DNA from: Bacteroidales bacterium
GTDB lineage: Bacteria > Bacteroidota > Bacteroidia > Bacteroidales > CAIWKO01
Length of the DNA stretch: 64,000 nt
Direction of reading: 5' to 3'
Assembly: GCA_023228145.1 (NCBI GenBank)
Contig: JALOBU010000005.1
Coordinates: forward strand, 5,573 to 69,572
Part shown: in pieces, positions 37,994 to 64,000 of the stretch
How positions within the stretch are numbered: the first letter of the stretch is position 1
How the letters are laid out: each line of letters starts with the position of its first letter
The notes under the pieces: model-generated
What the model was told of the DNA's origin: nothing
Seen by the model: the letters and a program-made list of their open reading frames with translations, nothing else
Databases searched by the model: none
Position numbers and translations under genes: made by a program

Positions 37994-38027
37994 GGTATTT
38001 TTCTTTTTTTATGGTGCATAACGGACA

Positions 38028-38136
38028 TGTGCTGCTGCATGGCGGGGCGTCAAACGGGCGTGTCCGGCGGACACTGCACGTTTTGATGTCCCGCTTAAGT
38101 GTCCGGCAGGACAGTTTTCCCGCTGGCAGCAGCACA
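38028..38136. other. GC-rich, highly structured ~109-nt intergenic element (structured RNA, terminator or REP/MITE-like)
   Basis: The outer stem is tgtgctgctgc (38028-38038) / gcagcagcaca (38126-38136), extended by gcggg (38042-46) / cccgc (38119-23). Two inner hairpins share the core gtgtccggc.ggaca: gtgtcc-ggc-ggacac (38060-38074) and tgtcc-ggca-ggaca (38100-38113). The strand is undetermined. Confidence 0.6.
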
Positions 38137-38160
38137 AAGTTAGCGTTTCGTTGGTTTTTA

Positions 38161-38829: not shown

Positions 38830-39340
38830 TTTTTTCTTTTTAATGATTAATAATTATTATTTGAATTTTTCATTTGTCTGTTTCCTAATCCAATGAACGC
38901 TAACGCCTGTGTTAGCGTATTACGTTTATTTTTACTTTAGTTTACGGTTACGTTTATTCCATTTTAACATCTTAAATTACTTATTATTAGCACTTTAATT
39001 TTTTTAATATCCGTTTGCAATCATTTGTCCCATAGGGATGCCTTTGGCATAAGCGTTTGTAATCGTCTCAACAAATATAATAATTATTTGAATTGATATA
39101 AAACTCGGAAAGTTTTTCTCGGAAGTATTTTTTGCATCTTCCGCTTTTTGGCAGGCACAGAAAATACATTTTACCGATTGCACATTCAATATAGTCCAAT
39201 GTCGCCTTTTTCTTATTGGACTATTTTCATGTAGCATCGGCACTAACCATTGTAATTTATTTTTTGTCTTTTGACTAAAAAATAAATACAATTGGTATTA
39301 CTTAGCCAGGGCTAATGCCGACGCAAAGTAAAAAATGCGC

Positions 39341-49612: not shown

Positions 49613-49642
49613 ATTGTTAGAAGTTAGAGGTTATCAGTTATT
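49601..49642. repeat. Degenerate (c)AGTnnnn heptad array at the left border of the acylation cluster
   Basis: The units in 7-nt register are agtgtga agtgaat tgttaga agttaga ggttatc agttatt. The array spans the convergent stop codons of the 48773..49612 and 49638..50225 genes. Confidence 0.55.
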
Positions 49643-50225
49643 TTTTTCTTTCAGGCTGTTGTCTTTCCAGAATAGTTAAGCCGTGCCCTGATTCGATATG
49701 GTCTTTTATCTGCCATTCGGGGTGGTCGTCAATAAACTCAAATATAGCGGCTTTCATTCCAGGTCTGCCATCGAATGGGTTTTTAAGCCCGAAGGTCTCG
49801 GTGCTGTGCATCATAATCCATTTCTTCACCCTGAGATGATGATGTTCCAGTTCTGCTTTAATTTGTCCATACCAATGATCGGTATCTATATACAGTAAGT
49901 CGGTTTTTTTTATTTTAGCTTTCAACACATCTTTTTGTATCATTTTAAAAAACATGTCATCATCTTGGGCAGCCTGCTTTATCATGCGGGCATTTTCAGT
50001 AATCACAAGGTCATAAGAATAAACTTTTTTACAACCGGATATCAAAAACGCCAACGTTGAACAACCGGTGTCAATACCAAACTCTGTAACTTTTTCGCAT
50101 TGTGACGCATAGTATTTCAATATTTCAAGATGAAGTTTAACCGCTTCAGGCCTGAAACCCAAGCTGCCTTTTTTCATGCTGTCGTATAACTTGATAAGGT
50201 TTTTAGGGGTTAACTTTTCCATCAT
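49638..50225 (-). CDS. Class I SAM-dependent methyltransferase (Methyltransf_24/CmcI-like)
   Basis: 195 aa. Motif I is VTEFGIDTGCST. Further motifs are LLYIDTDHWYGQIKAELE and the C-terminal GLTILER. It overlaps the upstream gene's stop by 4 nt. Confidence 0.75.
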   Translation of the reverse strand: MMEKLTPKNLIKLYDSMKKGSLGFRPEAVKLHLEILKYYASQCEKVTEFGIDTGCSTLAFLISGCKKVYSYDLVITENARMIKQAAQDDDMFFKMIQKDVLKAKIKKTDLLYIDTDHWYGQIKAELEHHHLRVKKWIMMHSTETFGLKNPFDGRPGMKAAIFEFIDDHPEWQIKDHIESGHGLTILERQQPERKK

Positions 50226-51190
50226 CCAAATATCAGATTATTTTTTTTATGAGCAAATAATAAAGTAGCATTGGCCAGTTCAAAATTTTTCTCCCGCTCC
50301 AGTTCTCTTACAAATGCCTTGTGGTAATATTTGTCACCTTCTTCCAACAATTCAGATACTTTCATCCGAAGGAATTCCTCTTTAGCCTCATCCTTCAATC
50401 CATTTGCCCAGTTTCTCAAAATCCATGTGAGCGACCAGATAGGCAAGCCATAAGGGCTTATATCGGTTTTGTCTGTAATGAGTAACCCATCGAAAAGGTT
50501 TTCAAGGCCACGGCTTGTCATATTATAATAATGGTGAGGGTAACCATGGTAAGGCTGAAGGAAAGGCACGCTACACAACAATTCCCCACCTGGTTTTAAC
50601 ACCCGTGCAATTTCTTTAGCACATAAAAACGGATCTTTCACATGCTCTAAGACTGAAAGAGAGATAAGTGCGTCAAAAGCATTATCCTTAAATGGTAGTT
50701 GTTCCCCAACAGCTAATACATCAGTAGTGTCGTAATCCACAATCTCAAGGTTTACCACATTATCATAATAAATATCTCTCTGCCCTGCCCCGCAGTCAAG
50801 TATGAGGCCGTGTTCATATTTGTTTATTAAATCCAAAACAAAAGGCTCGTAAATATTGCTGCTGACCATATCGGTATCCACAATATTATAAGTTTCACGG
50901 AAATCGTCACTTAAAAAATCAAAATTCAGGTTTTCCGTTTCGATATAAGGCATATCATTACGCAGCAAAGGTTTCACTTTTTCCTGTTTGCATATTTTAG
51001 CATCAACAATGGTAGAGATTGGCAGTCGTATGTTCCTTCCTTCTTCTTTGCCGAAAAGTTCAAAATGCTGGCGTCCCGAGGCGGCTACTCCTTTTTTAAT
51101 GGCAATGGCGACATCGAAATTTGCAGCCAGGTAGGCTTCTTCCGTAAAATTTTCTTCTGTAGCTTTCTCAATTAATGTATAATTAGCCAT
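50222..51190 (-). CDS. Class I SAM-dependent methyltransferase (Methyltransf_11-like) with ~120-aa N-terminal extension
   Basis: 322 aa. Motif I is ILDCGAGQ. Downstream are LPFKDNAFDALISLSVLEHVKDP and LKPGGELL. Confidence 0.85.
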   Translation of the reverse strand: MANYTLIEKATEENFTEEAYLAANFDVAIAIKKGVAASGRQHFELFGKEEGRNIRLPISTIVDAKICKQEKVKPLLRNDMPYIETENLNFDFLSDDFRETYNIVDTDMVSSNIYEPFVLDLINKYEHGLILDCGAGQRDIYYDNVVNLEIVDYDTTDVLAVGEQLPFKDNAFDALISLSVLEHVKDPFLCAKEIARVLKPGGELLCSVPFLQPYHGYPHHYYNMTSRGLENLFDGLLITDKTDISPYGLPIWSLTWILRNWANGLKDEAKEEFLRMKVSELLEEGDKYYHKAFVRELEREKNFELANATLLFAHKKNNLIFG

Positions 51191-51232
51191 TTGAACTGAT
51201 TGGTTTGAACAAAGTTATAAAAAAATACAAAT

Positions 51233-54200
51233 TTATTTTGAAACCGTATCATTTCTGTGAATAGGTTTTGGTTTTGATAACAATAAATGATTAATAATAT
51301 CAATAGACATTTCCTGGATAACAATATCGGGCTTTTCTATAATAACAACTTCATGACAAAATTCAGGAGTCCAAAAATAAGATATTCGCTGAAAATTATG
51401 ACTTAAATAATGACTTAACCAATTAGAAAAAGAGTCCCTGAACATCAGTACGGAAGGAGTTGAAATTTTATTGTTAACATAACTAATGGCTGGATTATTA
51501 GAAATAGAAATGGGGTAATTCAAATATTGTATTTCTGTAGGCATGGATAGTTTTTTGCTTAGAGGATATAATACCTCATTTTGATAATACTCGTTGATGA
51601 GCATTATTTTGTACATTCCATTAGCCACACCCTCACCACCAAAGTTTCTATTCATAAACTCTTTGTAATCTTCAGAAATCAAAAAAGAATCAGGCACGGC
51701 ATCGCCAAATTTAAACCATTCAAAATCATTATAATTAGCAGGGGACGGGATTCCGGGGAAATCTTTTTTAATAGCTTCCACTATTGTTTTATATGCGTAA
51801 TAAGCTCCATAAAAATTCCAATGCGGGTCGTCTTTGTAATAAATATCTTTGGGAGATGCCTGCCTTAAATCGTAAAGTGTTTGATAAACGTCAATAATGT
51901 TCAGACGGGTATTTTTCTTTAAATAGGAAAGAAACTGCTCTAATTTTGTAACTCCATTATGTTTATATATAGAAGGCCTTAACTTATCCTCATAAATCAG
52001 CAGTGCAGAAGGAGGAAAAACCAAATAAAATTTTATTCCTTTTTTTTGCAGCCAATTGTTTCGTTCGACCAATATATCGGACATTTTTTTCAATTCTGCT
52101 TCTGTTAATGGTTTTCGGTTTTCATAAGTTTCCAATATCCATCCCTGAATAAAAAACATCCAGCCATCTTTACCAAAATGTATTTTTTTGTTATTAATTA
52201 GTTCGTTAAAGGTTTTGTATTCAATCAGGTTATTTAAAGTAATGATATTGGTTCGTCCGGGAACATTATCAACAATAAAATTATTTATTTTGTTCGTAAA
52301 AGACTGGCATGAATCGATAGAAAAATCAGGGAAACTCTGTGCATTTCTTTTTTCTTTAACGATATAATTTTTTTTAGTACTAAAAATACTAAAACCAATT
52401 ACATTTGAGATAAAAACAATAAAGAATATGTTTATAATGGCATGCCGGTAGTTGACTATTGGAAGTACTTTGCATATTACGAGTAACACCAAAAAAAGCA
52501 CCATTGACAAAAAAATAAATATATGTTTCTTTAAAATCAACAAATATTCTGCATCATCAGATTGTGCAGCAGAGTTTAAAATAAAATAAGGGTCGGGGCC
52601 TGTAATATGATAAGTATTTCCTTTTTTCACCATATCATTGACAACGAGATAATCATATGGGATGCGCGAATAATTCCATGTTTTTTTAATCAACCCGGAA
52701 CTTAATGCAATTTTGGGTTCTTCAATTGTTTTTACATTACCCTCTAAATCAACACGCTGAAATTTATATTTTTGTAAAAGTACCTGAGAAATAAAAACGC
52801 CCTTATGCTTGCCAGACAAGAGTTTCCATTCGCTCCAAAATTCGGGGGTATTATAATAATATAAAAAAGATGCCTCTATATTGTTTTTTGACGAAAGCTT
52901 CACATTAAATTCATCATCTTTTCCAATCCAGTAAAATATAAATACAAAGATTGATGTAAGCACCGAAATCAGTACATTTTTTTTTGGGTTCAGATTAAGA
53001 ATAGCCGCAAATAATATCAGAATAAAAATAATCATCAACACGATAACAAACGCATGCTTGTTTTGATTCTCAGTTTGCAAAATGTTGAATGGTTTTAAAT
53101 TAATCCTGACGGGCGTTTCGGATTTTGAAACTACAACATTATAATCAAGTGGCGATGACAGTAGCTGAGCGTTCGATATGTTGAACAAATTGGTATCTTT
53201 AGCAAGTAAGTTTTGTACTGTTTCTCCCTTGCAATAGTTTACAGAATTAAGAAAAATAGTGTCGTTGGCTGAAAGGTTTTCAATAAGAAGAAATAGTCTG
53301 TTGTCGGTGTTAATAGCTTTTTTATATTGAAATAATTTAAACCCGGGCTGAGATATTTCCCATTTAGCCAAACATTCATTAGAGTTGTTAATGCTGATAA
53401 ATCCAGGACTTGATGTTCTTGCGGAAAAATAAATGTATTCGCTTTTATTGTCGGCAACAGGTGATTTCCATGGCTGACAAACTAAAACATAGGCAGCAGG
53501 TATGAAAAATAGTGTCAATTGCGAAATGTGAAATTTTGATTTTTCGATAAAATTCATGTAGCGACTCAAACAAATCAGGAGCATGAAAAATATCAGAGAA
53601 ACAAATAAACATAACTTGTCTTTTAAAAATAACAGCCATTCTATACGCGATAAAAAATAACTGGTTGTAATTTTAAAATACGGGTCAGTTCCCGTAATGA
53701 TGTATTTGTCTCCCTGCAGCACTATATCATTTAACAATATACATTTTTGGGGAATTTTGCTTAAAGAAAATGTTTTACAAATAAATGTATTTATAAAACT
53801 TATTTTTAAATCATCAATTACACGATTGTCTGATTCTATGTCAAATCTCAGGTATTTTTCTTCGTGTAAATTAATTGGGGTAGTGTAATTAAGAATATTT
53901 CCGTATTTATAATACTTTTTTTCGCCCGAAAACAAAGGCGTATGGTTATGAAAAACCTCAGGGTTTTTTATTTCATTTTGACTGCTTATTTTAACTTGCC
54001 AAATATCGTTGTGGTTAAGTACATAAACCACTACCATAATCATTGATGAAATAAAAACAGTGAAAAAGAAGTATTTTGATTTTGGTGCAAATATGAATAT
54101 CAGCAAAAAGCATAGAACAAAAATTCCAATTATAACTATTTTCTTATAAAGGCCTAAATCATTGGTCTCCCATGAATAATAAGGAAAAAATGTAATACAG

Positions 54201-54646
54201 GCAGATTGGTTAGCTTGGATTGCAGTCAGTTGTATCTCATCTTTTTTAACATTGACCAATGCATTTGCAACCAGTGTTTTTTCTAAAAATGATTTATTCA
54301 GCGAAAACAAGCGATTATCACGATACAGATTAACACCAAGTATTGAAATAGTGTCGTGCGGCGAAAGATGTTCAATAATCAGGCTGATTGAAGAAGCATC
54401 TTTTAATGATCCATAAAATTCAAGGCTTTTATAACCGCTACTGTCAACCTTCCACGAAGTCATAACTTTATTGCCCGACAACAATGTAATATTTGTGTGA
54501 GAATTTGTTTTAACGGAAAAATAAAAATAATCATTGGTATCGGTATCAATGGGAACAGAAGATTTATAATCATCTTTAAGCAGAAAATACAAACAGGGTA
54601 TGAACAGAAAAAGGAGATATATATATTTTATTCGGTTTTTAAACAT
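51233..54646 (-). CDS. Polytopic membrane protein: 2 x (~365-aa TM/beta-domain module ending in G.DPYF + TM) fused to a C-terminal AlgX/AlgJ-type (DHHW) SGNH-like O-acyltransferase domain
   Basis: 1137 aa. The internal duplication covers aa 1-365 and 366-735 (nt 53552-54646 and 52442-53551). The C-terminal ~370 aa (nt 51236-52339) carry AlgJ/AlgX-family motifs: HFGKDGWMFF, YYKDDPHWNFYGA (DxHW, nt 51818-51829) and MFRDSFSNW. Confidence 0.85.
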   Translation of the reverse strand: MFKNRIKYIYLLFLFIPCLYFLLKDDYKSSVPIDTDTNDYFYFSVKTNSHTNITLLSGNKVMTSWKVDSSGYKSLEFYGSLKDASSISLIIEHLSPHDTISILGVNLYRDNRLFSLNKSFLEKTLVANALVNVKKDEIQLTAIQANQSACITFFPYYSWETNDLGLYKKIVIIGIFVLCFLLIFIFAPKSKYFFFTVFISSMIMVVVYVLNHNDIWQVKISSQNEIKNPEVFHNHTPLFSGEKKYYKYGNILNYTTPINLHEEKYLRFDIESDNRVIDDLKISFINTFICKTFSLSKIPQKCILLNDIVLQGDKYIITGTDPYFKITTSYFLSRIEWLLFLKDKLCLFVSLIFFMLLICLSRYMNFIEKSKFHISQLTLFFIPAAYVLVCQPWKSPVADNKSEYIYFSARTSSPGFISINNSNECLAKWEISQPGFKLFQYKKAINTDNRLFLLIENLSANDTIFLNSVNYCKGETVQNLLAKDTNLFNISNAQLLSSPLDYNVVVSKSETPVRINLKPFNILQTENQNKHAFVIVLMIIFILILFAAILNLNPKKNVLISVLTSIFVFIFYWIGKDDEFNVKLSSKNNIEASFLYYYNTPEFWSEWKLLSGKHKGVFISQVLLQKYKFQRVDLEGNVKTIEEPKIALSSGLIKKTWNYSRIPYDYLVVNDMVKKGNTYHITGPDPYFILNSAAQSDDAEYLLILKKHIFIFLSMVLFLVLLVICKVLPIVNYRHAIINIFFIVFISNVIGFSIFSTKKNYIVKEKRNAQSFPDFSIDSCQSFTNKINNFIVDNVPGRTNIITLNNLIEYKTFNELINNKKIHFGKDGWMFFIQGWILETYENRKPLTEAELKKMSDILVERNNWLQKKGIKFYLVFPPSALLIYEDKLRPSIYKHNGVTKLEQFLSYLKKNTRLNIIDVYQTLYDLRQASPKDIYYKDDPHWNFYGAYYAYKTIVEAIKKDFPGIPSPANYNDFEWFKFGDAVPDSFLISEDYKEFMNRNFGGEGVANGMYKIMLINEYYQNEVLYPLSKKLSMPTEIQYLNYPISISNNPAISYVNNKISTPSVLMFRDSFSNWLSHYLSHNFQRISYFWTPEFCHEVVIIEKPDIVIQEMSIDIINHLLLSKPKPIHRNDTVSK

Positions 54647-54652
54647 CGCTTA

Positions 54653-56047
54653 TCAGAATTTAAAGTAGAAAAACGGGTTAAATGATACGGTAATTAATCG
54701 CATAACCGAAAGTAAAAAAACGACTATCAATCCAAAAGTATAAACAGAATCAAACACTTTTTTTGTTTTCTCTTTTTTCAAAAATTTTGAAATTGATATA
54801 GGTACGCAAAGCGCAATTCCAACAGCCATAATCAAATAGTGTTCTTTCATAAAAAAAGAAGTTAGTCCCAGAGTGCCTTCTCTTGGAAAGCTGAACATAA
54901 CGGAATAATAATCTAATGCCTGCTTCAAATCTTGTGTTCTGAACAAAACTCCTACAACCAAAAGAATAAACCATGTGTACAACATTCCAAAACCTTTGAT
55001 ACGTTTTAATAGTTTTAGCAGAAACAAAGCCTCAAGCCCCATCAATATCCCCTGAGTAAGCCCCCAGATAATATAATTCCATGTAGGCCCGTGCCAAATT
55101 CCGCAAACTACAAATGTTACAACCAAGGAAAAAAAAACTCCGGCATTACCCCAGTATCTTAATGACAAAGACAATGGGCTAAAGATGTAGTCTTTAATCC
55201 AGTTGGATAGTGTGATGTGCCAACGGCGCCAAAATTCTGTGATTGACCTGCTAATGTATGGATAATTAAAGTTTTCGGGGAGTTCAAATCCAAGCATTTT
55301 TCCTACGCCAATCGCCATATCAGTATATGCAGCAAAATCAAAGAAAAATTGTAAGGCAAATGCAAGCATGCCTACCCAGGCAACTTCAGGGCCAATACGC
55401 CAAAAATCTGTCTCAATAATTTGAGTTACTACATAACTGATTTGATCGGCTATCAGTACTTTTTTTCCTAATCCAATAATAAATCTTCTGACTCCTTCGG
55501 TAAAACGCGGCAAATCAAATTGGCGTTTTTTTAACTGTTGTTCAATTGCAGGATATCGTACAAGAGGCCCGAGAATAAGCTGAGGAAACATTGTAATGTA
55601 GAGGATAACATAAGCAGGATTTTTTTCAAAACGCTTGTTGCGCCTGTAAACTTCAATATTATACGAAATTGCCTGAAACGTAAAAAAAGAAAGCCCAAGC
55701 GTACTTATCGTTTTAATTTCGGGCAAATTTTGAACTCCGACATATATAAGATTATCAATGATAAAGCCGATATATCTGAAGTAAAATAAAATCCCACTAA
55801 AAGTGCACACAGCAAGGATAAGAAATATTTTTTGAAATTTTGTTTTTACAATAAAAAATGAAAATAACCATGCCAGAATGCTAATAACCAACAGAAGAAC
55901 AACAAGTTTACCTGCTCCCCAAAAATAAAATACCAAACTGGCAATAAACAGAAAGAGGTTTTTAGCCCATATTTTTGGCAATAAATAATATCCTGCGAGA
56001 AAAACAGGAAAGAATATAAAAATAAAAACTATCGAACTATAGACCAT
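54653..56047 (-). CDS. MBOAT-family membrane O-acyltransferase (AlgI/DltB-like)
   Basis: 464 aa, about ten TM helices. The MBOAT signature with the catalytic His is FWRRWHITLSNWIKDYIF. The N-terminal FIFF...YY and C-terminal layout resemble AlgI/DltB. Confidence 0.92.
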   Translation of the reverse strand: MVYSSIVFIFIFFPVFLAGYYLLPKIWAKNLFLFIASLVFYFWGAGKLVVLLLVISILAWLFSFFIVKTKFQKIFLILAVCTFSGILFYFRYIGFIIDNLIYVGVQNLPEIKTISTLGLSFFTFQAISYNIEVYRRNKRFEKNPAYVILYITMFPQLILGPLVRYPAIEQQLKKRQFDLPRFTEGVRRFIIGLGKKVLIADQISYVVTQIIETDFWRIGPEVAWVGMLAFALQFFFDFAAYTDMAIGVGKMLGFELPENFNYPYISRSITEFWRRWHITLSNWIKDYIFSPLSLSLRYWGNAGVFFSLVVTFVVCGIWHGPTWNYIIWGLTQGILMGLEALFLLKLLKRIKGFGMLYTWFILLVVGVLFRTQDLKQALDYYSVMFSFPREGTLGLTSFFMKEHYLIMAVGIALCVPISISKFLKKEKTKKVFDSVYTFGLIVVFLLSVMRLITVSFNPFFYFKF

Positions 56048-56164
56048 CTGCAGCTTTTATTTCAATTATTTATTATATTCATTATCAATAAAAAGCATGT
56101 TTTTTAAAGTTTTTCCTGACAATACTCTCAACTTATGCAACCATTCAATCCTTAGAAAAACATA

Positions 56165-57652
56165 TCATATTTCTAGCAGCTTTTTCAGGTCGTTCTCGTT
56201 AAATTTCGGTTTATCAAAAACATTCCTGTAATATTCCAGTATCTTTTCAGTGTCGAAATGTTTTTTTATCACCTGGTAACTTTTCTGAATACGTTTAGTG
56301 TTAATGTTGACATAACGCATCCAGTAACCCAGAAGCTCTTTTAAATCATTACTTGTCAGGGGCACTTTTTCCCTTGGAAAAAGATCGCCGTAAAACTCAA
56401 TATCATTAAACATTTCCAGGTGTATGACTCTTTTTTCCTGTTCAGCTATCTGCCGGTATTGCTCTTCTGTTGGTTTCAGCAAATTGAAGACTCTGGAGTT
56501 ATTATATATCCGTAACACGCTCAGCATGGGTTGTGCAACATATTCAAAGGAACCTGCATAATTGATGGTCTGCATCGCTTCTTCGTAGGTTTCGGTCGGG
56601 AATCCGATGATAAAAAGTGTCCGGGTTATAAAGCGCCTCGATGCGGCATGTATCGCTACTGATGCTTTATCTACATCCAGGTTTTTTCCTATCAGCTTTT
56701 GTAAACGGGGCACAGCGCTTTCAACAGCCAGCGCCATTTCCACTGTTCGAGCTTGTTCAAGGAGGTCTATCATTTCTTCATCCACCTGGTCGGCACGAAA
56801 CCCGTTTGGAAAATTCACCCTGACATCAGGTAGTTCTTTAATGATCAACGCCAGTAGCTCTTTAGCAGCAGGCATTGGGACATTGAAAGTGTCGTCCAGA
56901 AAGACAAAATTGAAAATACCGCGCTTGTCACGCCGCTCTTTCATCTCAGTAACCACGTTTTCAGCAGATCGCCGCCGTATTCTTTTTCCGAACAACTGGT
57001 GGCAATAAAAACAATCATAGGGGCATCCGCGCGTAGCCAGAACAAAGGCACATTTAGACACTTCCTGCAAAGCCTGATTTTTAATGCCCCGATAATCATC
57101 CAGATTAATAAAATCATAATCCGGAAAAGGAATACTATTAATATCTTTTATATAAGGGCGCGCTTCATTCACCCGCACAGTTTCGTCTTCCAACACAGCA
57201 GTGCCTTTTATTTCATGAGGAATTAACGGGGAATTCATAAGATGACTTATCAACTCTGTAAAAGTTACTTCTCCCTCTCCTATCACGACGATGTTTGCCA
57301 TATTATCTCGTAAAATATCTTCAAAACATGTTGATGGGTATGGCCCTCCGGCTACTATTGGAATATCAGGTTTAAGTTCACGTACCTTTTCTGACACAAG
57401 TTTAAAAGGAACCTTGGCTGTTGATAGCGCCCTGAGGCCAACCATATCGGGATCGAATGACCGGACAAGAGATTCCACACTTTTTACAGGATCCTTGCTT
57501 GTTGAGGTATGAAAAACGCTAAACTCTATCTCGGGAAATTTTTCTCTGGCAGTTGAAACAAGATACATCAACCCTACGGGATGATGGCTAAAATATACAT
57601 ACTTGGGATCCCCGAAAATATCAACATCTATTAAAAGTATTCTTTTTATCAT
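56165..57652 (-). CDS. Cobalamin-binding-domain radical SAM enzyme (class B), paralog 1
   Basis: 495 aa. The N-terminus is a Rossmann-like B12-binding domain (ILLIDVD ... MVGLRALS ... IVAGGPY). The radical SAM CxxxCxxC is CPYDCFYC, encoded at 57002-57025. Confidence 0.9.
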   Translation of the reverse strand: MIKRILLIDVDIFGDPKYVYFSHHPVGLMYLVSTAREKFPEIEFSVFHTSTSKDPVKSVESLVRSFDPDMVGLRALSTAKVPFKLVSEKVRELKPDIPIVAGGPYPSTCFEDILRDNMANIVVIGEGEVTFTELISHLMNSPLIPHEIKGTAVLEDETVRVNEARPYIKDINSIPFPDYDFINLDDYRGIKNQALQEVSKCAFVLATRGCPYDCFYCHQLFGKRIRRRSAENVVTEMKERRDKRGIFNFVFLDDTFNVPMPAAKELLALIIKELPDVRVNFPNGFRADQVDEEMIDLLEQARTVEMALAVESAVPRLQKLIGKNLDVDKASVAIHAASRRFITRTLFIIGFPTETYEEAMQTINYAGSFEYVAQPMLSVLRIYNNSRVFNLLKPTEEQYRQIAEQEKRVIHLEMFNDIEFYGDLFPREKVPLTSNDLKELLGYWMRYVNINTKRIQKSYQVIKKHFDTEKILEYYRNVFDKPKFNENDLKKLLEI

Positions 57653-57674
57653 CGGTCAAATTAAAAGTTGCAAT

Positions 57675-59171
57675 TTAATATTTAAGCAGGTTTTGCAGGT
57701 CTTTTTCATTAAATTTCGACCTGTTAAAAAGGCTTGCATAAAATTCTATGGTCGTTTTCTCATCAAGATATTTCTTTAAAACCTGATGGCTTTTCTGCAC
57801 TCGCAGGGGGTTGGTTAAAACATCGCGCATCCATATATACAGGAGTTCTTTGATATCATCGCTTTTTAACGGCACTTTGTCATCCGGAAAAAAATCGCCG
57901 TAAAATTCCACTTCCCCAAACATCTGCAGGTGCAATACTTTTTTTTCCTGATGGGCGATGGCAGCAAATTGTTCTTCTGTAGGCTTAAGAATATTAAATA
58001 GTCTGGAATTATTATACAATCGTAACATGCTTAAAGTGGGTTGGGCAACATATTCAAATGAAGCAGCAAACCTGACAGTATCCATTGCTTCATCAAAAGT
58101 TTCTGTTGGAAATCCTATCATATAAAATATGCGGGTAATAAACCTTTTTGATGCTGCATGAATTACTTTTTCAGCTTTTTTCAGGTCTAGGTTCTTTCCC
58201 ATCATTTTTTGCAAGCGTGGTGTAGCTGTTTCCACAGCCAGTGCCATTTCAACAGTACCTGCCTTTTCAAAAAGGTCAAGCATTTCTTCATCCATCTGGT
58301 CGACACGCAACCCATTCGGGAAATTCAGCCGAACGCCAGGTAGTTCTTTAGTAATTAAAGATAACACTTTTTTCGCCTCCTGCATGGGAACATTAAAAAG
58401 GTCATCCAGAAATACAAAATCACTAATTCCCAGACTTTCTTTGCGTTCCCGCATTTCGGCAACAACATTTTCCGCTGACCGGCGCCGAATCCTCTTTCCA
58501 AAAATCTGGTGACAGTAAAAACAACCGTAAGGGCAACCGCGTGAGCTTAAAATATATGCGGGTTTGGAAGTATCCTGCATGGTATGATCTCGTATACCAA
58601 CATAATCTTTCAGGTCTATATAACTATAATCCGGAAATACAATAGTATCAATATCCTTTATCAAAGGACGCGGATCATTAACAAAAACCTTTTCATCTCT
58701 GAGTACAGCAGTTCCCCTAATATCACCTGGTATGGAATCTGATTCCATCAGACGGTCGATCAGTTCCACAAAAGTGTCTTCACCTTCTCCGATTACAGCG
58801 ATGTCAACACACCCATTCAATAAAATTTCAGCATAAGAAGCGGAGGAATAAGGCCCGCCGCCTATTATCGGCAGTTCGGGCTTCAATTCCCTGATTTTAT
58901 CTGCCACCAACTTAAAGGTAGATTTAGCTGTGGATAAAGCCCTTAACCCAACAATATCAGGATTATACGAAAACAAAAGCTCTTCAATACGTTTTAGTGG
59001 ATCTTTGTAAGTATAAGTATGAAAAACTTTAAACTGAATATCAGGAAACGATTTTCTGGCTGCAGAAACAAGATACAAAAGCCCGACAGGATGATGACTG
59101 TAATGAAGGGTTCCGGGATCATCCTTGTCCTCGAAAACTTCAACATCAATTAAAAGTACCCTGTTTATCAT
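57675..59171 (-). CDS. Cobalamin-binding-domain radical SAM enzyme (class B), paralog 2
   Basis: CPYGCFYC is encoded at 58512-58535. The protein is collinear with paralog 1 over its full length. I place the start at the ATG at 59171 (MINRVLLIDVEV), which aligns with paralog 1's MIKRILLIDVDI. The ORF-track start at 59237 would add 22 unaligned residues. Confidence 0.88.
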   Translation of the reverse strand: MINRVLLIDVEVFEDKDDPGTLHYSHHPVGLLYLVSAARKSFPDIQFKVFHTYTYKDPLKRIEELLFSYNPDIVGLRALSTAKSTFKLVADKIRELKPELPIIGGGPYSSASYAEILLNGCVDIAVIGEGEDTFVELIDRLMESDSIPGDIRGTAVLRDEKVFVNDPRPLIKDIDTIVFPDYSYIDLKDYVGIRDHTMQDTSKPAYILSSRGCPYGCFYCHQIFGKRIRRRSAENVVAEMRERKESLGISDFVFLDDLFNVPMQEAKKVLSLITKELPGVRLNFPNGLRVDQMDEEMLDLFEKAGTVEMALAVETATPRLQKMMGKNLDLKKAEKVIHAASKRFITRIFYMIGFPTETFDEAMDTVRFAASFEYVAQPTLSMLRLYNNSRLFNILKPTEEQFAAIAHQEKKVLHLQMFGEVEFYGDFFPDDKVPLKSDDIKELLYIWMRDVLTNPLRVQKSHQVLKKYLDEKTTIEFYASLFNRSKFNEKDLQNLLKY

Positions 59172-59225
59172 TATACCAACGACATTAAAATGTGCCCTTC
59201 CAGCTGCAAATATAATATTTATTGC

Positions 59226-59233
59226 TAATTTTG
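59226..59233 (+). promoter_or_regulatory. TAnnTTTG -7 box for the FkbH-ACP-methyltransferase operon
   Basis: taattttg lies 24 nt upstream of the ATG at 59257, within the 85-bp divergent intergenic region. Confidence 0.45.
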
Positions 59234-59256
59234 ACACAAATTAGCGACATGTGTTT

Positions 59257-60987
59257 ATGAAAGATTTCACTCACTTACGAAAAAATTTAAAGAAAGATTT
59301 TTCGGGTTTAATACAGGTAAAAGTGGCTGTGTTAGGCGACACCTCAACACAGTTTTTAGCTGAGGCCATTCGTAGCATGGGATATGAAAAAGACTTCAAC
59401 ATTGTGATGTGGGAAGCCGATTATAACCAAATTGAAAGGCAGGTGTTTGATAACACATCTGAATTATATAAATACAAACCAGAAATTATAATCATTTTCC
59501 AGTCTTCGCATAAATTACTATCCAAATTTAATAAGCTACAGCCGAATCAATACAACACACTTGCCCGAACAGAATTAGGGATAATTGATAATACATGCAA
59601 CACTTTATTCCACAACCTCAACACAAAAATAATTTTTTACAATTATTCAGAAATCAACGATGCTGTTTTTGGCAATTATTCCAATAAAACTGAATCGTCA
59701 TTTTTATTTCAACTTAGAAAACTCAACTACGAGTTAATGGAATATGCCATTAAAAATCATGATTTCTATTTGTGTGACCTTTCTGCGATACAGAACAGGT
59801 TTGGCAGGGCTGTTTTTTTTCAGCCATCAGTATACGTGAATGCTGAAATGGTACTTAGCATTGATGTTCTGCCAGAAGTGGCTTCCAAAACCATTGATAT
59901 CATCAGCGCATTACGTGGGAAGTTCATAAAGTGCGTGATCCTCGACCTGGACAATACCACTTGGGGCGGAATCATCGGTGAGGACGGGATTGAAAATATT
60001 CAACTTGGCAGCCTCGGCATCGGAAAAGCCTTTACCGAATTCCAGTACTGGATAAAAAAACTCAAGAACAGGGGAATCATCATCGCAGTTTGCAGTAAAA
60101 ACAGCGAGCACATCGCAAAAGAACCTTTTGAAAAACATCCCGACATGGTTCTGCAACTGAAAGATATTGCTGTATTTATTGCTAACTGGGGCAACAAGGT
60201 GGATAACATCATTCAGATCCAGAGCATCCTGAACATAGGTTATGATTCGATGGTCTTTATAGATGACAGCCCTTTTGAAAGAAATATCGTGAGAGAAAGC
60301 CTGCCTGATGTTTGTGTGCCGGAATTGCCCGAAGACCCGGCAGATTACCTGGAGTATCTTTATGGGCTGAACCTGTTTGAAACAACATCTGTTTCCGGCG
60401 CAGATGCTGAAAGAACCAGGCAATATCAGATTGAAGCACAGAGGAGTATCGTACAGCAAAAATTTACCAATGAAGATGACTATCTGAAAAGCCTGAATAT
60501 GCTGTCAGTGGTTGAACCATTTAATAAATATAACACACCCAGAGTCGCTCAACTTTCTCAACGCTCAAATCAGTTTAACCTCAGGACTGTTCGCTTCACG
60601 GAAACTGATATTAAAAAAATTGCAGAGTCTGAAACCCATTTTACTTTTGCATTTACCCTTGAAGATAAGTTTGGAGATAACGGATTGACAGGCGTGATAA
60701 TCCTTCAAAAAGAAGACACCGATACGGTTTTTATTAATACATGGTTTATGAGTTGCAGGATTTTAAAAAGAAGGATGGAACAATTTATGCTTAACACGAT
60801 TGCATCATTTAGCATTGATAACGGATACAGTTACTTGAAAGGAGAATATATTCCAACAATAAAAAATGAAATGGTGAAAGAACATTATAAAAATTTAGGA
60901 TTTGAAAAATCAGGAGAATTTTGGGTGTTACCTTTAAAAGATTATGAGTATAGAAAGTGTTTTATTAACAGGAAATTAGGTGAATAA
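59257..60987 (+). CDS. FkbH-like HAD-IIIC phosphatase/acyl-loading enzyme
   Basis: About 576 aa. The HAD motif I is VILDLDNTTWGG (DxDxT), followed by AVCSKN and FIDD. The N-terminal ~220-aa domain and the C-terminal GNAT-like domain (FTLEDKFGDNGLTGVII) are as in FkbH/OzmB-type proteins. The ORF-track start at 59251 is GTG; the ATG is at 59257. Confidence 0.85.
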   Translation: MKDFTHLRKNLKKDFSGLIQVKVAVLGDTSTQFLAEAIRSMGYEKDFNIVMWEADYNQIERQVFDNTSELYKYKPEIIIIFQSSHKLLSKFNKLQPNQYNTLARTELGIIDNTCNTLFHNLNTKIIFYNYSEINDAVFGNYSNKTESSFLFQLRKLNYELMEYAIKNHDFYLCDLSAIQNRFGRAVFFQPSVYVNAEMVLSIDVLPEVASKTIDIISALRGKFIKCVILDLDNTTWGGIIGEDGIENIQLGSLGIGKAFTEFQYWIKKLKNRGIIIAVCSKNSEHIAKEPFEKHPDMVLQLKDIAVFIANWGNKVDNIIQIQSILNIGYDSMVFIDDSPFERNIVRESLPDVCVPELPEDPADYLEYLYGLNLFETTSVSGADAERTRQYQIEAQRSIVQQKFTNEDDYLKSLNMLSVVEPFNKYNTPRVAQLSQRSNQFNLRTVRFTETDIKKIAESETHFTFAFTLEDKFGDNGLTGVIILQKEDTDTVFINTWFMSCRILKRRMEQFMLNTIASFSIDNGYSYLKGEYIPTIKNEMVKEHYKNLGFEKSGEFWVLPLKDYEYRKCFINRKLGE

Positions 60988-60988
60988 T

Positions 60989-61023
60989 CAGTTAGCAGTG
61001 AACAGTTAGCAGTGAACAGTGAT
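60989..61023. repeat. CAGTnnn heptad tandem array (5 units; also 2 x 14-mer) immediately after the FkbH stop
   Basis: The units are cagttag cagtgaa cagttag cagtgaa cagtgat, in strict 7-nt register. The array starts 2 nt after the TAA at 60985-60987. Confidence 0.9.
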
Positions 61024-61065
61024 AATGCGCAATAAATAATAAAATTGACATAAAACAAATAAAAA

Positions 61066-61308
61066 ATGGAAAGAAACGAAATTTTAAAACAAGTCAACGA
61101 AATCTTTATTGATGTCCTCGACAAGGATACTATCGTTTTAAATGACAATACAACCGCCAATGACATCGAAGAATGGGACTCACTGGCTCATATACGCCTG
61201 GTAGTAACTATCGAAAAAAAATTCAATGCTCATTTTTCATCAAAGGAAATTCAAAGCTGGGATAATGTGGGTGAGATGATTGATTGTATTTGTGAGAAAG
61301 TGAAATAA
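61066..61308 (+). CDS. Acyl carrier protein (stand-alone, DltC/ACP-like)
   Basis: 80 aa. The phosphopantetheine attachment motif is EEWDSLAHIRLV, with the Ser codon at 61180-61182. It is a four-helix-sized protein. Confidence 0.88.
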   Translation: MERNEILKQVNEIFIDVLDKDTIVLNDNTTANDIEEWDSLAHIRLVVTIEKKFNAHFSSKEIQSWDNVGEMIDCICEKVK

Positions 61309-61309
61309 C

Positions 61310-61379
61310 AGTCGGCAGTTGTCAGTTATCAGTTATCAGTTAACAGTTAACAGTTATCAGTTAACAGTCGATAGTTGGA
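61310..61379. repeat. CAGTTAn heptad tandem array (10 units) immediately after the ACP stop
   Basis: The units are cagtcgg cagttgt cagttat cagttat cagttaa cagttaa cagttat cagttaa cagtcga tagttgg, in strict 7-nt register. Confidence 0.92.
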
Positions 61380-61459
61380 AAGCGGTTAAAATTAATTTTA
61401 AATAATGGCAACGGGTTTCAGAAATTTATTATTTTTTTAAAAATATTCGTAGCAAAAAC

Positions 61460-62362
61460 ATGCAAAAAACCCTGGATTATATTATTGATAGCATAAGTTC
61501 GAAGAACAAATTACATGCTAAAAAAATAAAAAACAACATAAAAAACTTTGACGAAGAGTATTACACACGTGCTGACAATTTCTTCAAAAAATACCTGACT
61601 ATACTTCAAAAAGACAATAAAACCATTGATTACGCTATAGATTGCTACCTTCAGATGATTGCAGATATCAATTATGAAACGGTGCAGTTTGCTAAAACGG
61701 GAGAATATTCCAGTAAGTCATTCGAAGAAGTAAATAAAAGGGTTTACAGCAACCCTGAAGTGATGAAGTATTATGTTCATGGCATCCTTATGTCACAGTT
61801 TTTATGGGCACACCATTACAAAATTCATACATTCTTCAGCAAAATCATCAAAGAAAACAGCAACCACATTTCACGTTATCTTGAGGTGGGCGGAGGACAT
61901 GGCCTATACGCATCCGAAGCCATTAAAATAATCGGCAAACAATCTACATTTCATTTGGTAGATATCAGTCAAAGCTCACTTGAACTGGCAAAGATGATGA
62001 TTGATAACGACACCGTCAGTTATTTTCACTCGGACATTTTTCATTTTGAACCCTGCACCAAATATGATTTTATTACCATGGGAGAAGTTCTGGAGCATGT
62101 GGAAGAGCCCGGGAAACTTTTAAAAAAATTATATGACTTACTTGAAGATAACGGAAAATTATTTATAACCGCCCCTACCAATGGCCCTACCATTGACCAT
62201 ATTTATCTTTTCAAAAATGCTGACGAAATAAGAAATTTGATTGCGTCTGCAGGTTATTTTATTGAAAAAGAGTACTGTGTATATGCTGAGGATGTTAGCC
62301 CGGAAATTGCTGAAAAATATAAGGTATCTATGATGTTTGCAGGGATTCTGAAGAAAAAATAG
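61460..62362 (+). CDS. Class I SAM-dependent methyltransferase
   Basis: 300 aa. Motif I is YLEVGGGHGLY. Downstream are YDFITMGEVLEHVEEP and LEDNGKLFITAP. Confidence 0.85.
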   Translation: MQKTLDYIIDSISSKNKLHAKKIKNNIKNFDEEYYTRADNFFKKYLTILQKDNKTIDYAIDCYLQMIADINYETVQFAKTGEYSSKSFEEVNKRVYSNPEVMKYYVHGILMSQFLWAHHYKIHTFFSKIIKENSNHISRYLEVGGGHGLYASEAIKIIGKQSTFHLVDISQSSLELAKMMIDNDTVSYFHSDIFHFEPCTKYDFITMGEVLEHVEEPGKLLKKLYDLLEDNGKLFITAPTNGPTIDHIYLFKNADEIRNLIASAGYFIEKEYCVYAEDVSPEIAEKYKVSMMFAGILKKK

Positions 62363-62420
62363 CAATCGGTTTTTGTTGCCTTCCTAACCTGAACATTGTT
62401 CATCAATTAAAGGTTGCAGC

Positions 62421-62445
62421 AGCTTACTTTTGAGTAAGCTTTAAG
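62421..62445. terminator. Hairpin between convergent genes (possible bidirectional terminator)
   Basis: The hairpin is agcttact-tttg-agtaagct (62421-62440), flanked by T/A-rich sequence. Confidence 0.45.
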
Positions 62446-62458
62446 ATTTAATCACATT

Positions 62459-64000
62459 TTATCTTTTACTTTTCAGAATAAATCCCGTAAACAAAACCAT
62501 TAACAAAATTGAAACAGTTACAAACAAGTACATATTCTGTCTCAACAAAACTATCCACTCTATTTTTTCGGTGAAATAACCGGATGTAAAACAAAAATAC
62601 GGGTCAGTACCAACCTGATAGTATATTCCATTTCTTATGTCAATATCATTCAGTAATAGTTTTTCAGGTTTTATTTTGCAAATATCAAAATCATTTCTAA
62701 AAACCCCTGTTTTTGTTATCAGGCTCATGCAACTTATATCTGCGGTACTGTCGTTAATGTCGCAACGCAGGAATTTATTATCGTTCAGGTTTAAATCCAT
62801 TTTGTAAAACCGCCTCCAGAGATACAAAGAATTAACTTTCTCCGCATCAAAAAACGGGTTATTGCTGTAATAAATATCTACTCCTCTCACTACACGCTCT
62901 GTTTTCACCGCCAGCTTGCCACTTTCATCAGGCACTGCAAAATAGACAATTAACATTAAAAATGTGGCCGATATGGTTGCAAAAATAGTATTAAGTCTGG
63001 ACGGAGATGCTGCAACAATAATTATTAAAACTAAAATAAAAATAAAAAACACCAATACCCTCATTTGTTCATTAGTCTTATTATCATGCCAGGTAAAAGC
63101 AGGAGCAAATCTTATCGTTACAGGTGTATTTGAATTTTCAACAAGGACATCCATACCGGCACCTTTTATTTTTTTTGCATTAGTAATCCGGCAGTTTTCC
63201 ATCTGCCCTGGGTACAACGTTGCAACTTTTCCTTTCGTATAATAATTCATTGATAGCAACGAAACAGTGTCGCCCGCATGAAACCCGCTGAGGCGCAACA
63301 GCAGGCATGCTTTATCATCCAATGCTTCACATTCTGTCTGCAGAAGTTTATAGGCCTGCAACGAGTCTGTTTGCCATTCGCTTAAAGGCTTGCCTCCACC
63401 GAACAATTCAATATTTGCAGCTTTTGCCGTTTTTATCGAGAAATATAATTTATCCTTTTCTGCAACAGACTGCTTTGTACCGCTTTGCCATGTAACAAAA
63501 GCCCAAAAAGCCGGTATCACTATAAATAAAAGATGTATTCCTTGTAGACTGTTTTTAAATTTTTCGGGCAAAATAAAATGCAAAGAAAGGAGTATCATAA
63601 AAGCCAGAAGAGAAGCCAGTAAGAACATATTTTGCCGGGAAAATAAAACCAGCTTAAAACTTTTTTGAAATCCGGCATGTGTAAATAAAAAGTAAGGGTC
63701 ATTGCCGCATACAATATATTTTCCGTCTTTCAAAATCAAATCATTCAGTATCAAATTTCCTGTAACAACATCAGAAATTTTCCAAGATTTATTTAACACA
63801 CCCGAGCTAAGTCCAAAACTCAAGTCAAACGCAGCATGTTTAGCACTTTCCAAATCAATGCGCATAAAAGGCTTACTTTCAATATCTGTTGGATATTCAA
63901 AAACATGAACTCCCGAATCGCTTTCAAAAACCATATCTCCCGAAAAACAAGGAGTTGTACTGCAAAATGTTTCAAATCTTTGAACAGGTTTATCTGAAAT
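62459..64000 (-). CDS. Polytopic membrane protein paralogous to the N-terminal modules of the 1137-aa AlgX-fusion protein (5'-partial; frame open to window end)
   Basis: It has the same two-module architecture, with G.DPYF + TM ends encoded at 63689-63700 (CGNDPYFLF) and 62594-62605 (VGTDPYFCF). There is no stop between the first Met (63934) and nt 64000, so the N-terminus may lie outside the window. It has no SGNH domain. Confidence 0.8.
   Translation of the reverse strand: MSDKPVQRFETFCSTTPCFSGDMVFESDSGVHVFEYPTDIESKPFMRIDLESAKHAAFDLSFGLSSGVLNKSWKISDVVTGNLILNDLILKDGKYIVCGNDPYFLFTHAGFQKSFKLVLFSRQNMFLLASLLAFMILLSLHFILPEKFKNSLQGIHLLFIVIPAFWAFVTWQSGTKQSVAEKDKLYFSIKTAKAANIELFGGGKPLSEWQTDSLQAYKLLQTECEALDDKACLLLRLSGFHAGDTVSLLSMNYYTKGKVATLYPGQMENCRITNAKKIKGAGMDVLVENSNTPVTIRFAPAFTWHDNKTNEQMRVLVFFIFILVLIIIVAASPSRLNTIFATISATFLMLIVYFAVPDESGKLAVKTERVVRGVDIYYSNNPFFDAEKVNSLYLWRRFYKMDLNLNDNKFLRCDINDSTADISCMSLITKTGVFRNDFDICKIKPEKLLLNDIDIRNGIYYQVGTDPYFCFTSGYFTEKIEWIVLLRQNMYLFVTVSILLMVLFTGFILKSKR

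Follow-up and report, generated by a model that had tools for sequence, protein, structure and literature searches.

A putative carrier-protein-dependent MBOAT/SGNH acylation system in a glycan-modification locus of uncultured Bacteroidales

Can a Gram-negative bacterium charge an acyl group onto a small carrier protein in the cytoplasm and pass it through an MBOAT protein to a glycan outside the membrane? The question is raised by a gene cluster at the right end of a 64,000-nt stretch of Bacteroidales contig JALOBU010000005.1 (assembly GCA_023228145.1), which is called the window here. Two divergent operons in this cluster encode a long-form FkbH-like loader, an acyl carrier protein (ACP), a class I methyltransferase (MT23), twin B12-dependent (class B) radical SAM enzymes, an MBOAT acyl translocase, a 1137-aa protein ending in an AlgX-type SGNH domain (the AlgX fusion) and two further class I methyltransferases (MT11 and MT24), and the gene of a large membrane protein crosses the window end (Table 1). 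To our knowledge, the Gram-positive Dlt system is the only case of carrier-dependent MBOAT/SGNH acylation described to date. Domains were assigned by Pfam and NCBIfam profile scans, PDB sequence searches, and Foldseek searches with AlphaFold models; the map of open reading frames (ORFs) together with the profiles substantiated all ten genes, their domains, coordinates and catalytic motifs, as listed in a preliminary description of this DNA. On the strength of sequence and gene context, we consider it probable that the core of the cluster is a carrier-protein-dependent MBOAT/SGNH system for trans-membrane acylation, situated within a glycan-modification locus.

The two transfer proteins carry the residues expected of such a pathway. 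The MBOAT contains RRWH at 274–277 (His277), WHG at 318–320 (His319) and a C-terminal FFYFKF at 459–464 (Tyr461), the latter closing an extension of ~120 extra residues. In PatA, the acyl group is carried as an ester on the tyrosine of the corresponding FxYxxF hexapeptide, and the same is cited for DltX (PMC12148441). With this tail fused to the MBOAT, no separate DltX is needed, and 74 of 76 full-length related MBOATs terminate in FxYxxF. The only NCBIfam match of the window MBOAT is DltB (TIGR04091), at 149 bits versus a cut-off of 375, and its only PDB sequence matches are the DltB structures 8JEM and 6BUG. In the AlgX fusion, the ALGX/DHHW domains span residues 823–1086, within the last ~380 residues; DPHW at 940 (Asp940, His942) and RDSF at 1070 (Ser1072) supply the SGNH triad, and PatB1 (5V8D) and AlgX are the PDB sequence matches.

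On the loading side, FkbH scores 284 bits against TIGR01686 (cut-off 147), which places it in the FkbH family. It comprises FkbH_N, a HAD-IIIC phosphatase domain with D230-x-D232-x-T234, and a C-terminal domain with S499-C500-R501, and all these residues are at least 97% conserved among 79 FkbH sequences. Residues 4–380 match PDB 3SLR, a structural-genomics entry (B. fragilis BF1531; E = 1e-144). The N-terminal domain (residues 1–220, window 59257–59920), with its invariant G-D-x-x-T-Q block, is absent from classical polyketide FkbH proteins. The ACP has its phosphopantetheine attachment site, Ser39, within EEWDSL; it lies closer to generic ACP models (32 bits, below cut-off) than to DltC (18 bits). 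Family membership and a recurrent variant of the locus, described below, suggest that the product would be glyceryl-S-ACP formed from 1,3-bisphosphoglycerate. Within the ~26 kb formed by the cluster and its extension beyond the window, there is no ketosynthase, condensation domain, FkbI, FkbK or FkbG.

We then asked whether these genes keep company elsewhere. A scan with the window FkbH protein, using one genome per species, yielded 569 relatives, and all locus-level counts refer to the best 80 of these (65–72% identical, nearly all from Bacteroidota), which were compared by tblastn and ORF clustering. An MBOAT accompanies FkbH and ACP in 71/80 loci, the exceptions lying mostly on short or truncated contigs, and ACP stands beside FkbH in almost all of the 80. 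A transmembrane (TM)-anchored partner of ~310–370 aa follows the MBOAT in at least 50/80 loci. The SGNH partners of such basic FkbH-ACP-MBOAT-SGNH modules show G-S/A-S as block I and, close to the C-terminal end, D-x-x-H, and one of them (locus L079) exceeds the Pfam DltD cut-off. Outside Bacteroidota, a Rhodobacteraceae plasmid encodes an ACP, a HAD-IIIC protein, an MBOAT, a hypothetical protein and a VOC protein, and S. meliloti pSymB encodes a VOC protein, an MBOAT, a 409-aa partner annotated as "TonB-dependent receptor", an ACP and FkbH; both MBOATs end in FxYxxF. The S. meliloti module lies ~5 kb from rkpR/ABC capsule-export genes (L168, strain 1021 pSymB 631–636 kb; L170, strain ml28), and the FkbH gene of strain 1021 reads in two frames, as a frameshift or a pseudogene. 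The co-conservation to which the preliminary description had looked is thus found, and it extends to Alphaproteobacteria. The gene order of the window recurs in at least seven species-level genomes and several metagenome contigs, so the arrangement is not due to chance. The basic module is common, including in cultivable Flavobacterium, Pedobacter, Mucilaginibacter, Maribacter and Mariniphaga species, and apparently unstudied, its genes bearing generic PGAP names such as "HAD-IIIC family phosphatase" and "MBOAT family protein". Hundreds of bacterial species have simpler versions; the elaborated form seen in the window is rare and known only from uncultured Bacteroidota.

The genes between ACP and MBOAT, which form the tailoring set, vary from locus to locus, and some loci have none. 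A MaoC dehydratase and a short-chain dehydrogenase/reductase (SDR) follow ACP in 21/80 loci. The set with MT23 occurs in 22/80, 15 of which also encode a methylmalonyl-CoA-epimerase-like VOC protein. In the starter route of FR901464, FkbH, a dehydratase and a ketoreductase turn glyceryl-ACP into lactyl-ACP. The MaoC-plus-SDR set mirrors this glyceryl-to-lactyl route and, by analogy, indirectly supports glycerate as the loaded unit. MaoC is paired with a different B12-radical-SAM enzyme in 2/80 loci. These two (L030 and L066, ~3.2–4.4 kb) read FkbH, ACP, MaoC and a ~540-aa B12-radical-SAM enzyme, then MBOAT and an SGNH protein; the radical SAM enzyme is 21–23% identical to the window pair and occupies the SDR position.

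What, then, is the acyl donor of the MBOAT? Contexts anchored on MT24 homologues revealed a constant block consisting of MBOAT, a ~1110-aa AlgX fusion, MT11 and MT24, alongside which the loading genes change. FkbH, ACP and MT23 without a radical SAM enzyme serve as loader in L179, FkbH with one radical SAM enzyme in L182, and another contig has two radical SAM enzymes; in L180 and one more contig, FkbH is absent and an AMP-ligase with a 76–79-aa carrier is present. Two further loci (L006 and L178) show an AlgX-type partner beside an AMP-ligase and a carrier, and end before any MBOAT; the L006 AMP-ligase, the one examined, resembles ACP-loading fatty-acyl-AMP ligases, not DltA. In a phylogenetic tree, the MBOATs that have AlgX fusions as partners group into a single clade irrespective of loader type; they share 50–66% identity and are ~30% identical to MBOATs with DltD-like partners. 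The loader of the MBOAT/AlgX-fusion module is therefore interchangeable, being either the FkbH set or a fatty-acyl-AMP ligase with its carrier. A carrier protein consistently accompanies the module; among the available arguments for ACP as acyl donor, this is the strongest, and this gene context argues for a carrier-bound donor of the window MBOAT. Adjoining the FkbH/MBOAT/AlgX-fusion genes of L179 is another carrier-dependent set (L179 10692–20088), which encodes two AMP-ligases, a GNAT protein, a 79-aa protein, two GDSL/SGNH proteins, an MBOAT and a PP-binding protein; a LysM on one of the GDSL/SGNH proteins hints at a peptidoglycan acceptor.

Next, we considered which enzymes may tailor the ACP-bound unit. 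MT23 adjoins FkbH/ACP in the 22 loci counted above and in every locus with radical SAM orthologues, and we regard it as a candidate O-methyltransferase for the ACP-bound glyceryl unit. The two radical SAM enzymes are 63% identical to each other and have the class B architecture, with an N-terminal B12-binding domain ahead of a radical SAM core whose CxxxCxxC motif reads CPYDCFYC at residue 210 in enzyme 1 and CPYGCFYC at 213 in enzyme 2. Scores against the NCBIfam models of named class B subfamilies (PhpK, HpnR, BchE, ApyD, CysS, TokK and others) fell far below the cut-offs, and PDB sequence matches to TokK and CysS were weak. Among 1.8 billion representative proteins, the four nearest relatives are ~500 aa long and 43–45% identical, and many of the next-best are proteins of 1,000–7,500 aa. 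Three of these large relatives (P0021, P0023 and P0041) were inspected and proved to be nonribosomal peptide synthetase (NRPS) modules with embedded B12/radical SAM domains, which suggests that members of this clade presumably work on carrier-tethered substrates. In these giants, the B12-binding and radical SAM domains sit between adenylation, condensation and carrier domains, an architecture not met in the searched literature. Orthologues of the window enzymes (>60% identity) occur in species genomes only within FkbH/ACP/MBOAT/AlgX-fusion loci, in one or two copies and always with MT23.

MT11 and MT24 follow a different pattern. MT11 has an LDCGAG motif and an N-terminal extension of ~130 aa, and its orthologues in L006 and L038 are 62–65% identical. 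The AlphaFold model of MT24, built on a 33-sequence alignment, has a mean predicted local distance difference test (pLDDT) score of 93.5; Foldseek returned M. hassiacum MeT1, a sugar O-methyltransferase, first, followed by SafC and CCoAOMT-like proteins, with probability 1.0. MT24 has 66 homologues at 40–80% identity, one of them within a Wzy/glycosyltransferase/ABC glycan locus beside a radical SAM/SPASM gene. The MT11–MT24 pair follows the AlgX fusion in L179, L180, L182 and one more AMP-ligase contig. Since the pair stays with MBOAT and the AlgX fusion under an AMP-ligase loader with FkbH absent, it belongs to the transfer side and not to the FkbH side. Both enzymes probably act elsewhere than on the ACP-bound unit, on the glycan or on sugar precursors, and tailoring of that unit is likely limited to MT23 and the radical SAM enzymes.

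The remaining ~760 N-terminal residues of the AlgX fusion are internally duplicated. Hydropathy and AlphaFold secondary structure give ~10 TM helices and four beta-sandwich domains, arranged twice as TM, beta-sandwich, TM-TM, beta-sandwich, TM-(TM). This order puts all four sandwiches and the AlgX domain on one side of the membrane, which, from the TM count, is presumably the periplasmic side. BLASTP aligned residues 39–722 with residues 37–721 of the membrane protein at the window end (26% identity, E = 3e-69). Foldseek on the AlgX-fusion model gave mostly meaningless matches; one weak local match, to the carbohydrate-binding module 2xhh, hints at glycan binding, within a model of low confidence. 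A homologue search found four proteins, and a species-genome scan with that alignment found one locus. An identical fusion protein is encoded on a contig of 167,694 bp. The duplicated TM/beta-sandwich arrays fused to AlgX constitute a new family. Orthologues of the fusion are 30–35% identical across species, compared with 60–76% for the neighboring genes, and its G+C content of 31% is the lowest in the cluster; both features fit a fast-evolving, specificity-determining component.

To place the cluster in its wider context, we followed the DNA past the window end. An exact-protein look-up identified L081, a locus in another assembly holding the same DNA (12540/12541 bases identical). A scan for DNA patterns extended the contig by only 2.5 kb more. 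Public assemblies include 22 contigs with a protein identical to MT23, so the organism recurs among sequenced samples. The last ORF of the window, listed as 491 aa from ATG 63934 (62459–63934), belongs to a protein that is actually 731 aa long (L081 11000–13195). Of the preliminary description's "paralogous polytopic membrane protein", cut by the window end, the paralogy to the AlgX fusion stands; the protein is a duplicated TM/beta-sandwich array and not a classical polytopic protein. Its gene is the first seen of a second set, whose next minus-strand genes encode a 579-aa ALGX protein (DTHW, RDSY) and MBOAT2, which is 60% identical to the first MBOAT and ends in FIYFRF. A divergent group comes next, encoding FdtA, a DegT-type sugar aminotransferase and a 313-aa GT2 glycosyltransferase with two C-terminal TM helices and full-length matches to ArnC and PgfS. 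Beyond GT2 lie genes for another class I methyltransferase and a 573-aa polytopic protein, then a radical SAM/SPASM gene in convergent orientation. The 573-aa protein might be a GT-C-like glycosyltransferase, judging by where its gene lies and by an invariant YGVDxPxxDxW in the first loop.

In L019, FkbH-ACP-MT23 is directly followed by the orthologous GT2, the methyltransferase and a 567-aa membrane protein, an order that links the acyl module to an undecaprenyl-phosphate-sugar-like module. The second MBOAT/AlgX/membrane set, FdtA, the aminotransferase, the ArnC-like GT2 and the large membrane protein identify a glycan-modification locus, and the cluster in the window is the left part of this accessory locus, which measures at least 26 kb. 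Glycan genes are missing from the cluster as first described only because they begin past the window end. In L180 2243–3739, a DUF2142 membrane protein between the carrier and the MBOAT may be a counterpart of the 573-aa protein. A radical SAM protein of ~505–540 aa (SPASM below threshold) recurs at the edges of such glycan loci (L087 2760–4286, L019 12163–13779 and L181 8452–9966), and in L181 its gene lies directly upstream of an MT24 homologue.

From these elements, we propose the following mechanism. Using its HAD site and Cys500, FkbH would transfer a glyceryl unit from 1,3-bisphosphoglycerate to Ser39 of ACP. MT23 would O-methylate the tethered unit, and one or two B12-radical-SAM enzymes would C-methylate an unactivated carbon or, in a possible variant, extend the methoxy group as CysS does. 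The MBOAT would accept the acyl group from ACP at the cytoplasmic face and transfer it to its own Tyr461 on the outer face, from where the AlgX domain (Asp940, His942 and Ser1072) would receive it on Ser1072 and esterify an extracytoplasmic glycan, probably held by the four beta-sandwich domains. MT11 and MT24 probably methylate the glycan or its sugar precursors. No separate loader accompanies the second MBOAT2/AlgX/membrane set, which probably uses acyl groups from the same ACP pool to modify a second site. FdtA, DegT, the ArnC-like GT2 and the 573-aa protein may install a 3-amino-3,6-dideoxyhexose via a lipid-phosphate carrier, and this sugar may be the acceptor or part of it. Between them, the two sets past the window end probably attach a 3-amino-6-deoxyhexose side group and acylate it. 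For both the acyl group and the acceptor, we infer identity from the genes present.

Several points weigh against this mechanism. MBOAT/SGNH pathways other than Dlt are stated to be without a carrier protein (PMC12148441), and the fused FxYxxF architecture is so far tied to acetyl-CoA donors. FkbH is only ~25–32% identical to secondary-metabolite FkbH proteins, compared here as Streptomyces genes and B. thuringiensis plasmid genes, the latter presumably the zwittermicin cluster. The match is restricted to residues ~220–560, so the long form with its N-terminal domain represents a distinct subfamily; given this extra domain and the low identity, 1,3-bisphosphoglycerate is not assured as the substrate. 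The role given to Cys500 is our assumption, by analogy to work on OzmB. Action of a radical SAM enzyme on a glyceryl ester bound to ACP is, as far as we could find, without precedent. Searches of Pfam, NCBIfam and PDB profiles returned no match for the 573-aa membrane protein, and the AlphaFold model of the AlgX fusion, from a 4-sequence alignment, has a mean pLDDT of 50, with 65–84 in the beta-sandwiches.

The fused tyrosine motif, typical of acetyl-CoA users, is also the starting point of an alternative in which the MBOAT/AlgX pairs are acetyl-CoA-dependent O-acetyltransferases, and the acyl unit built by FkbH, ACP, MT23 and the radical SAM enzymes is joined to its target while still in the cytoplasm, an example being an N-linkage to the 3-amino sugar that FdtA and the aminotransferase produce. 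FdtA and DegT are indeed present without an FdtC-type N-acetyltransferase, and N-acylated amino-deoxyhexoses are generally known to be frequent in O-antigens. We nevertheless regard this alternative as unlikely, though deserving of real weight, since no cytoplasmic acyltransferase able to take the acyl group from ACP is seen in the locus, most related operons consist of FkbH-ACP-MBOAT-SGNH with or without one or two tailoring genes and have no amino-sugar genes, and the MBOAT/AlgX-fusion module is paired elsewhere with an AMP-ligase and a carrier. At the other extreme, FkbH enzymes are best known from polyketide synthase (PKS) and NRPS pathways, and FkbH and ACP might feed such a pathway or stand next to the MBOAT by accident; with no ketosynthase, condensation domain, FkbI or FkbK in the ~26 kb and a gene order conserved across phyla, the synteny survey effectively refutes this idea, to which we attach almost no probability.

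Two further proposals concern parts of the mechanism. The preliminary description had up to five methylases acting on the ACP-bound unit, and all five genes (MT23, MT11, MT24 and both radical SAM genes) do lie in the two divergent operons and are jointly conserved in L006, L038 and L171. This has to be set against the persistence of MT11 and MT24 beside MBOAT and the AlgX fusion in AMP-ligase loci without FkbH, whereas only MT23 and the radical SAM enzymes accompany FkbH/ACP; moreover, an MT24 homologue is located in a Wzy/glycosyltransferase/ABC glycan locus, the top structural match of MT24 is a sugar O-methyltransferase, and five methylases would find few positions on a unit of three carbons. 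We therefore abandoned that claim in its original form and hold decoration by all five before export to be quite improbable. The acceptor, for its part, might be a lipid or lipoglycan anchor (lipid A/core or a glycolipid) or peptidoglycan instead of a polysaccharide side chain, a change that touches the acceptor only and is compatible with carrier-dependent export through the MBOAT. In Flavobacterium, the basic module sits among housekeeping genes beside an MsbA-like ABC transporter, outside O-antigen loci, and the neighboring AMP-ligase/carrier/MBOAT system in L179 has a LysM-bearing SGNH partner. The window variant, however, is flanked by the ArnC-like GT2, FdtA and DegT, its partner is of the AlgX/PatB1 type that acts on polysaccharides, and the AlgX fusion has the weak match to a carbohydrate-binding fold; for the window, such an acceptor seems to us a slim prospect.

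How does the proposed carrier-dependent system compare with known ones? It shares with Dlt a carrier charged in the cytoplasm, transfer by an MBOAT, the FxYxxF tyrosine and delivery to a polymer by an extracytoplasmic SGNH protein; the window ACP is, like DltC, a small carrier with a phosphopantetheinyl serine (Ser39), and the partners in basic modules are DltD-like. It differs in that the loader is an FkbH/HAD enzyme and not an adenylating DltA, no AMP-binding protein being encoded in window 49.6–64 kb or the next ~11 kb. The acyl group is presumably derived from glycerate, whereas Dlt uses D-alanine; the FxYxxF is fused to the window MBOAT, whereas in Dlt it resides on the DltX microprotein; the window partner is an ALGX/DHHW domain fused to a membrane array, not DltD; and the hosts here are Gram-negative, without teichoic acids. 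The earlier view of a Dlt-like system in which FkbH replaces DltA is accordingly supported by synteny, by the partner that passes the DltD cut-off and by the AMP-ligase-loaded variants, with the correction that the MBOAT is no DltB orthologue.

With PatA/PatB, PatA1/PatB1 of B. cereus and AlgI/AlgJ/AlgF/AlgX, which O-acetylate peptidoglycan, secondary cell wall polysaccharide and alginate, the window system has in common the MBOAT histidines with a fused C-terminal FxYxxF and an AlgX/PatB1-type SGNH domain with D-x-H and a downstream Ser. PatA/PatB and the Alg systems use acetyl-CoA and no carrier protein (PMC12148441), whereas the window has a dedicated, co-operonic ACP and loader, and its SGNH domain is fused to the novel duplicated TM/beta-sandwich region. 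Like the glyceryl-ACP loaders FkbH, OzmB and ZmaN, the window enzyme belongs to TIGR01686 and has the HAD DxDxT, the conserved C-terminal Cys and an adjoining ACP; unlike them, it has the extra N-terminal domain of ~220 aa, solved in 3SLR, and its product would go to an MBOAT and not to an assembly line. The FR901464/bryostatin starter route resembles the FkbH-ACP-MaoC-SDR order of 21/80 related loci, where, however, the components are discrete proteins and not PKS domains and MBOAT and SGNH genes follow; the window has MT23 and radical SAM enzymes in place of the dehydratase and reductase. CysS, TokK and the NRPS-embedded enzymes share the B12-binding plus radical SAM architecture of the window pair.

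Three named pathways were tried and rejected. Among the genes of the window region and the contig extension, there is no AlgF, AlgJ or alginate synthase Alg8/Alg44, which excludes an alginate locus; a PKS/NRPS locus was rejected because the ~26 kb have no ketosynthase, condensation domain or FkbI/FkbK/FkbG; and a canonical dlt locus fails on DltA, the DltB equivalog, DltX and, in the window, DltD. The preliminary assignment as neither alginate, PKS nor canonical dlt is upheld by these absent marker genes and by the sub-cut-off DltB score. A full-text literature search returned no description of an FkbH/ACP/MBOAT/SGNH system, the only papers joining FkbH and MBOAT being on the suomilide and aeruginosin NRPS clusters, and no association of class B radical SAM enzymes with FkbH, ACP and MBOAT; in the literature searched, the combination is as unrecognized as had first been stated.

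Beyond the window, we tentatively suggest, as a conjecture we would not yet back at even odds, that Gram-negative bacteria (Bacteroidota and some Alphaproteobacteria, including S. meliloti) hold a widespread, unrecognized counterpart of Dlt, with glyceryl-ACP made by long-form FkbH from a glycolysis-derived unit, interchangeable tailoring sets, export by fused-tyrosine MBOATs, and esters on surface glycans. Depending on the tailoring set, these would be glyceryl, lactyl or O-methylglyceryl esters or, where B12-radical-SAM enzymes take part, derivatives with higher O-alkyl or C-methyl groups. If so, carrier proteins can serve as donors for MBOATs of PatA/AlgI architecture, and ACP-tethered three-carbon esters can be substrates of class B radical SAM enzymes; the window variant would present a possible new substrate class for B12-radical-SAM methylases. 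The loci suggest a large second class of carrier-dependent MBOAT/SGNH systems, with FkbH or fatty-acyl-AMP ligase loaders, and a variety of esters of small hydroxy or alkoxy acids on the surface polymers of Gram-negative bacteria. We infer that such esters would alter charge, hydrophobicity, and phage and immune recognition and, being labile, may be overlooked in structural work on polysaccharides. Cultivable carriers, the 3SLR structure and the S. meliloti pSymB module make the hypothesis directly testable.

Table 1 Features of the cluster in window coordinates
Feature	Position	Strand	Evidence
MT24, 195 aa, class I cation-dependent-type O-methyltransferase-like	49638..50225	-	sub-threshold Methyltransf_24; AlphaFold/Foldseek
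MT11, 322 aa, class I SAM methyltransferase	50222..51190	-	Pfam Methyltransf_11, 52 bits
AlgX fusion protein, 1137 aa	51233..54646	-	Pfam ALGX, 66 bits; DHHW
AlgX fusion, N-terminal ~760 aa, TM/beta-sandwich array	52370-54646	-	hydropathy, AlphaFold
AlgX fusion, C-terminal AlgX/PatB1-type SGNH acyltransferase domain	51236-52369	-	Pfam, PDB matches
MBOAT acyl translocase, 464 aa	54653..56047	-	Pfam MBOAT, 83 bits
B12-dependent (class B) radical SAM enzyme 1, 495 aa	56165..57652	-	Pfam B12-binding and Radical_SAM above cut-offs
B12-dependent radical SAM enzyme 2, 498 aa from ATG 59171	57675..59171	-	Pfam B12-binding and Radical_SAM above cut-offs
Divergent spacer, 85 bp	59172..59256	.	true starts ATG 59171 (-) and ATG 59257 (+)
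Long-form FkbH-like loader, 576 aa	59257..60987	+	FkbH_N, 251 bits; TIGR01686, 284 bits
ACP, 80 aa	61066..61308	+	Pfam PP-binding, 25.8 bits (cut-off 20.8)
MT23, 300 aa, UbiG/BioC-like class I methyltransferase	61460..62362	+	Pfam, NCBIfam
C-terminal 513 codons of 731-aa membrane protein; gene extends to ~64654	62459..64000	-	L081 sequence

As to the layout of the operons, the two translation starts confirmed the previously described 85-bp divergent spacer. Tight spacing with 4-nt overlaps had also been described; the 4-nt overlap holds for MT11/MT24, and the remaining gaps measure 6 to 117 nt. The spacer contains one TAnnTTTG box per strand, at 59226–59233 (+) and 59214–59207 (−), where 0.13 would be expected by chance in 85 bp; we take TAnnTTTG to be the Bacteroidota −7 promoter consensus. 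Scans for sigma-70 promoters and for terminators showed no excess over shuffles, and an Rfam scan gave zero matches, hence no cobalamin or SAM riboswitch. G+C content is 31–34% across window 52000–56000 (AlgX fusion and MBOAT) versus ~38% elsewhere.

The M3 peptidase adjoining the cluster is 90% identical to a protein of an uncultured Bacteroidales metagenome-assembled genome. In an island test, the cluster of the closest genome was not beside the M3 peptidase gene and synteny was broken on both sides, which shows only that the position of the cluster is variable. The part of the window upstream of position 49638 contains housekeeping genes along with genes for cargo of the type IX secretion system. 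Three adjacent genes with Fib_succ_major domains, one with a type IX secretion sorting domain, occupy window 37076–40204, and further cargo genes of this secretion system lie at 17269–18336 and 44509–45843.

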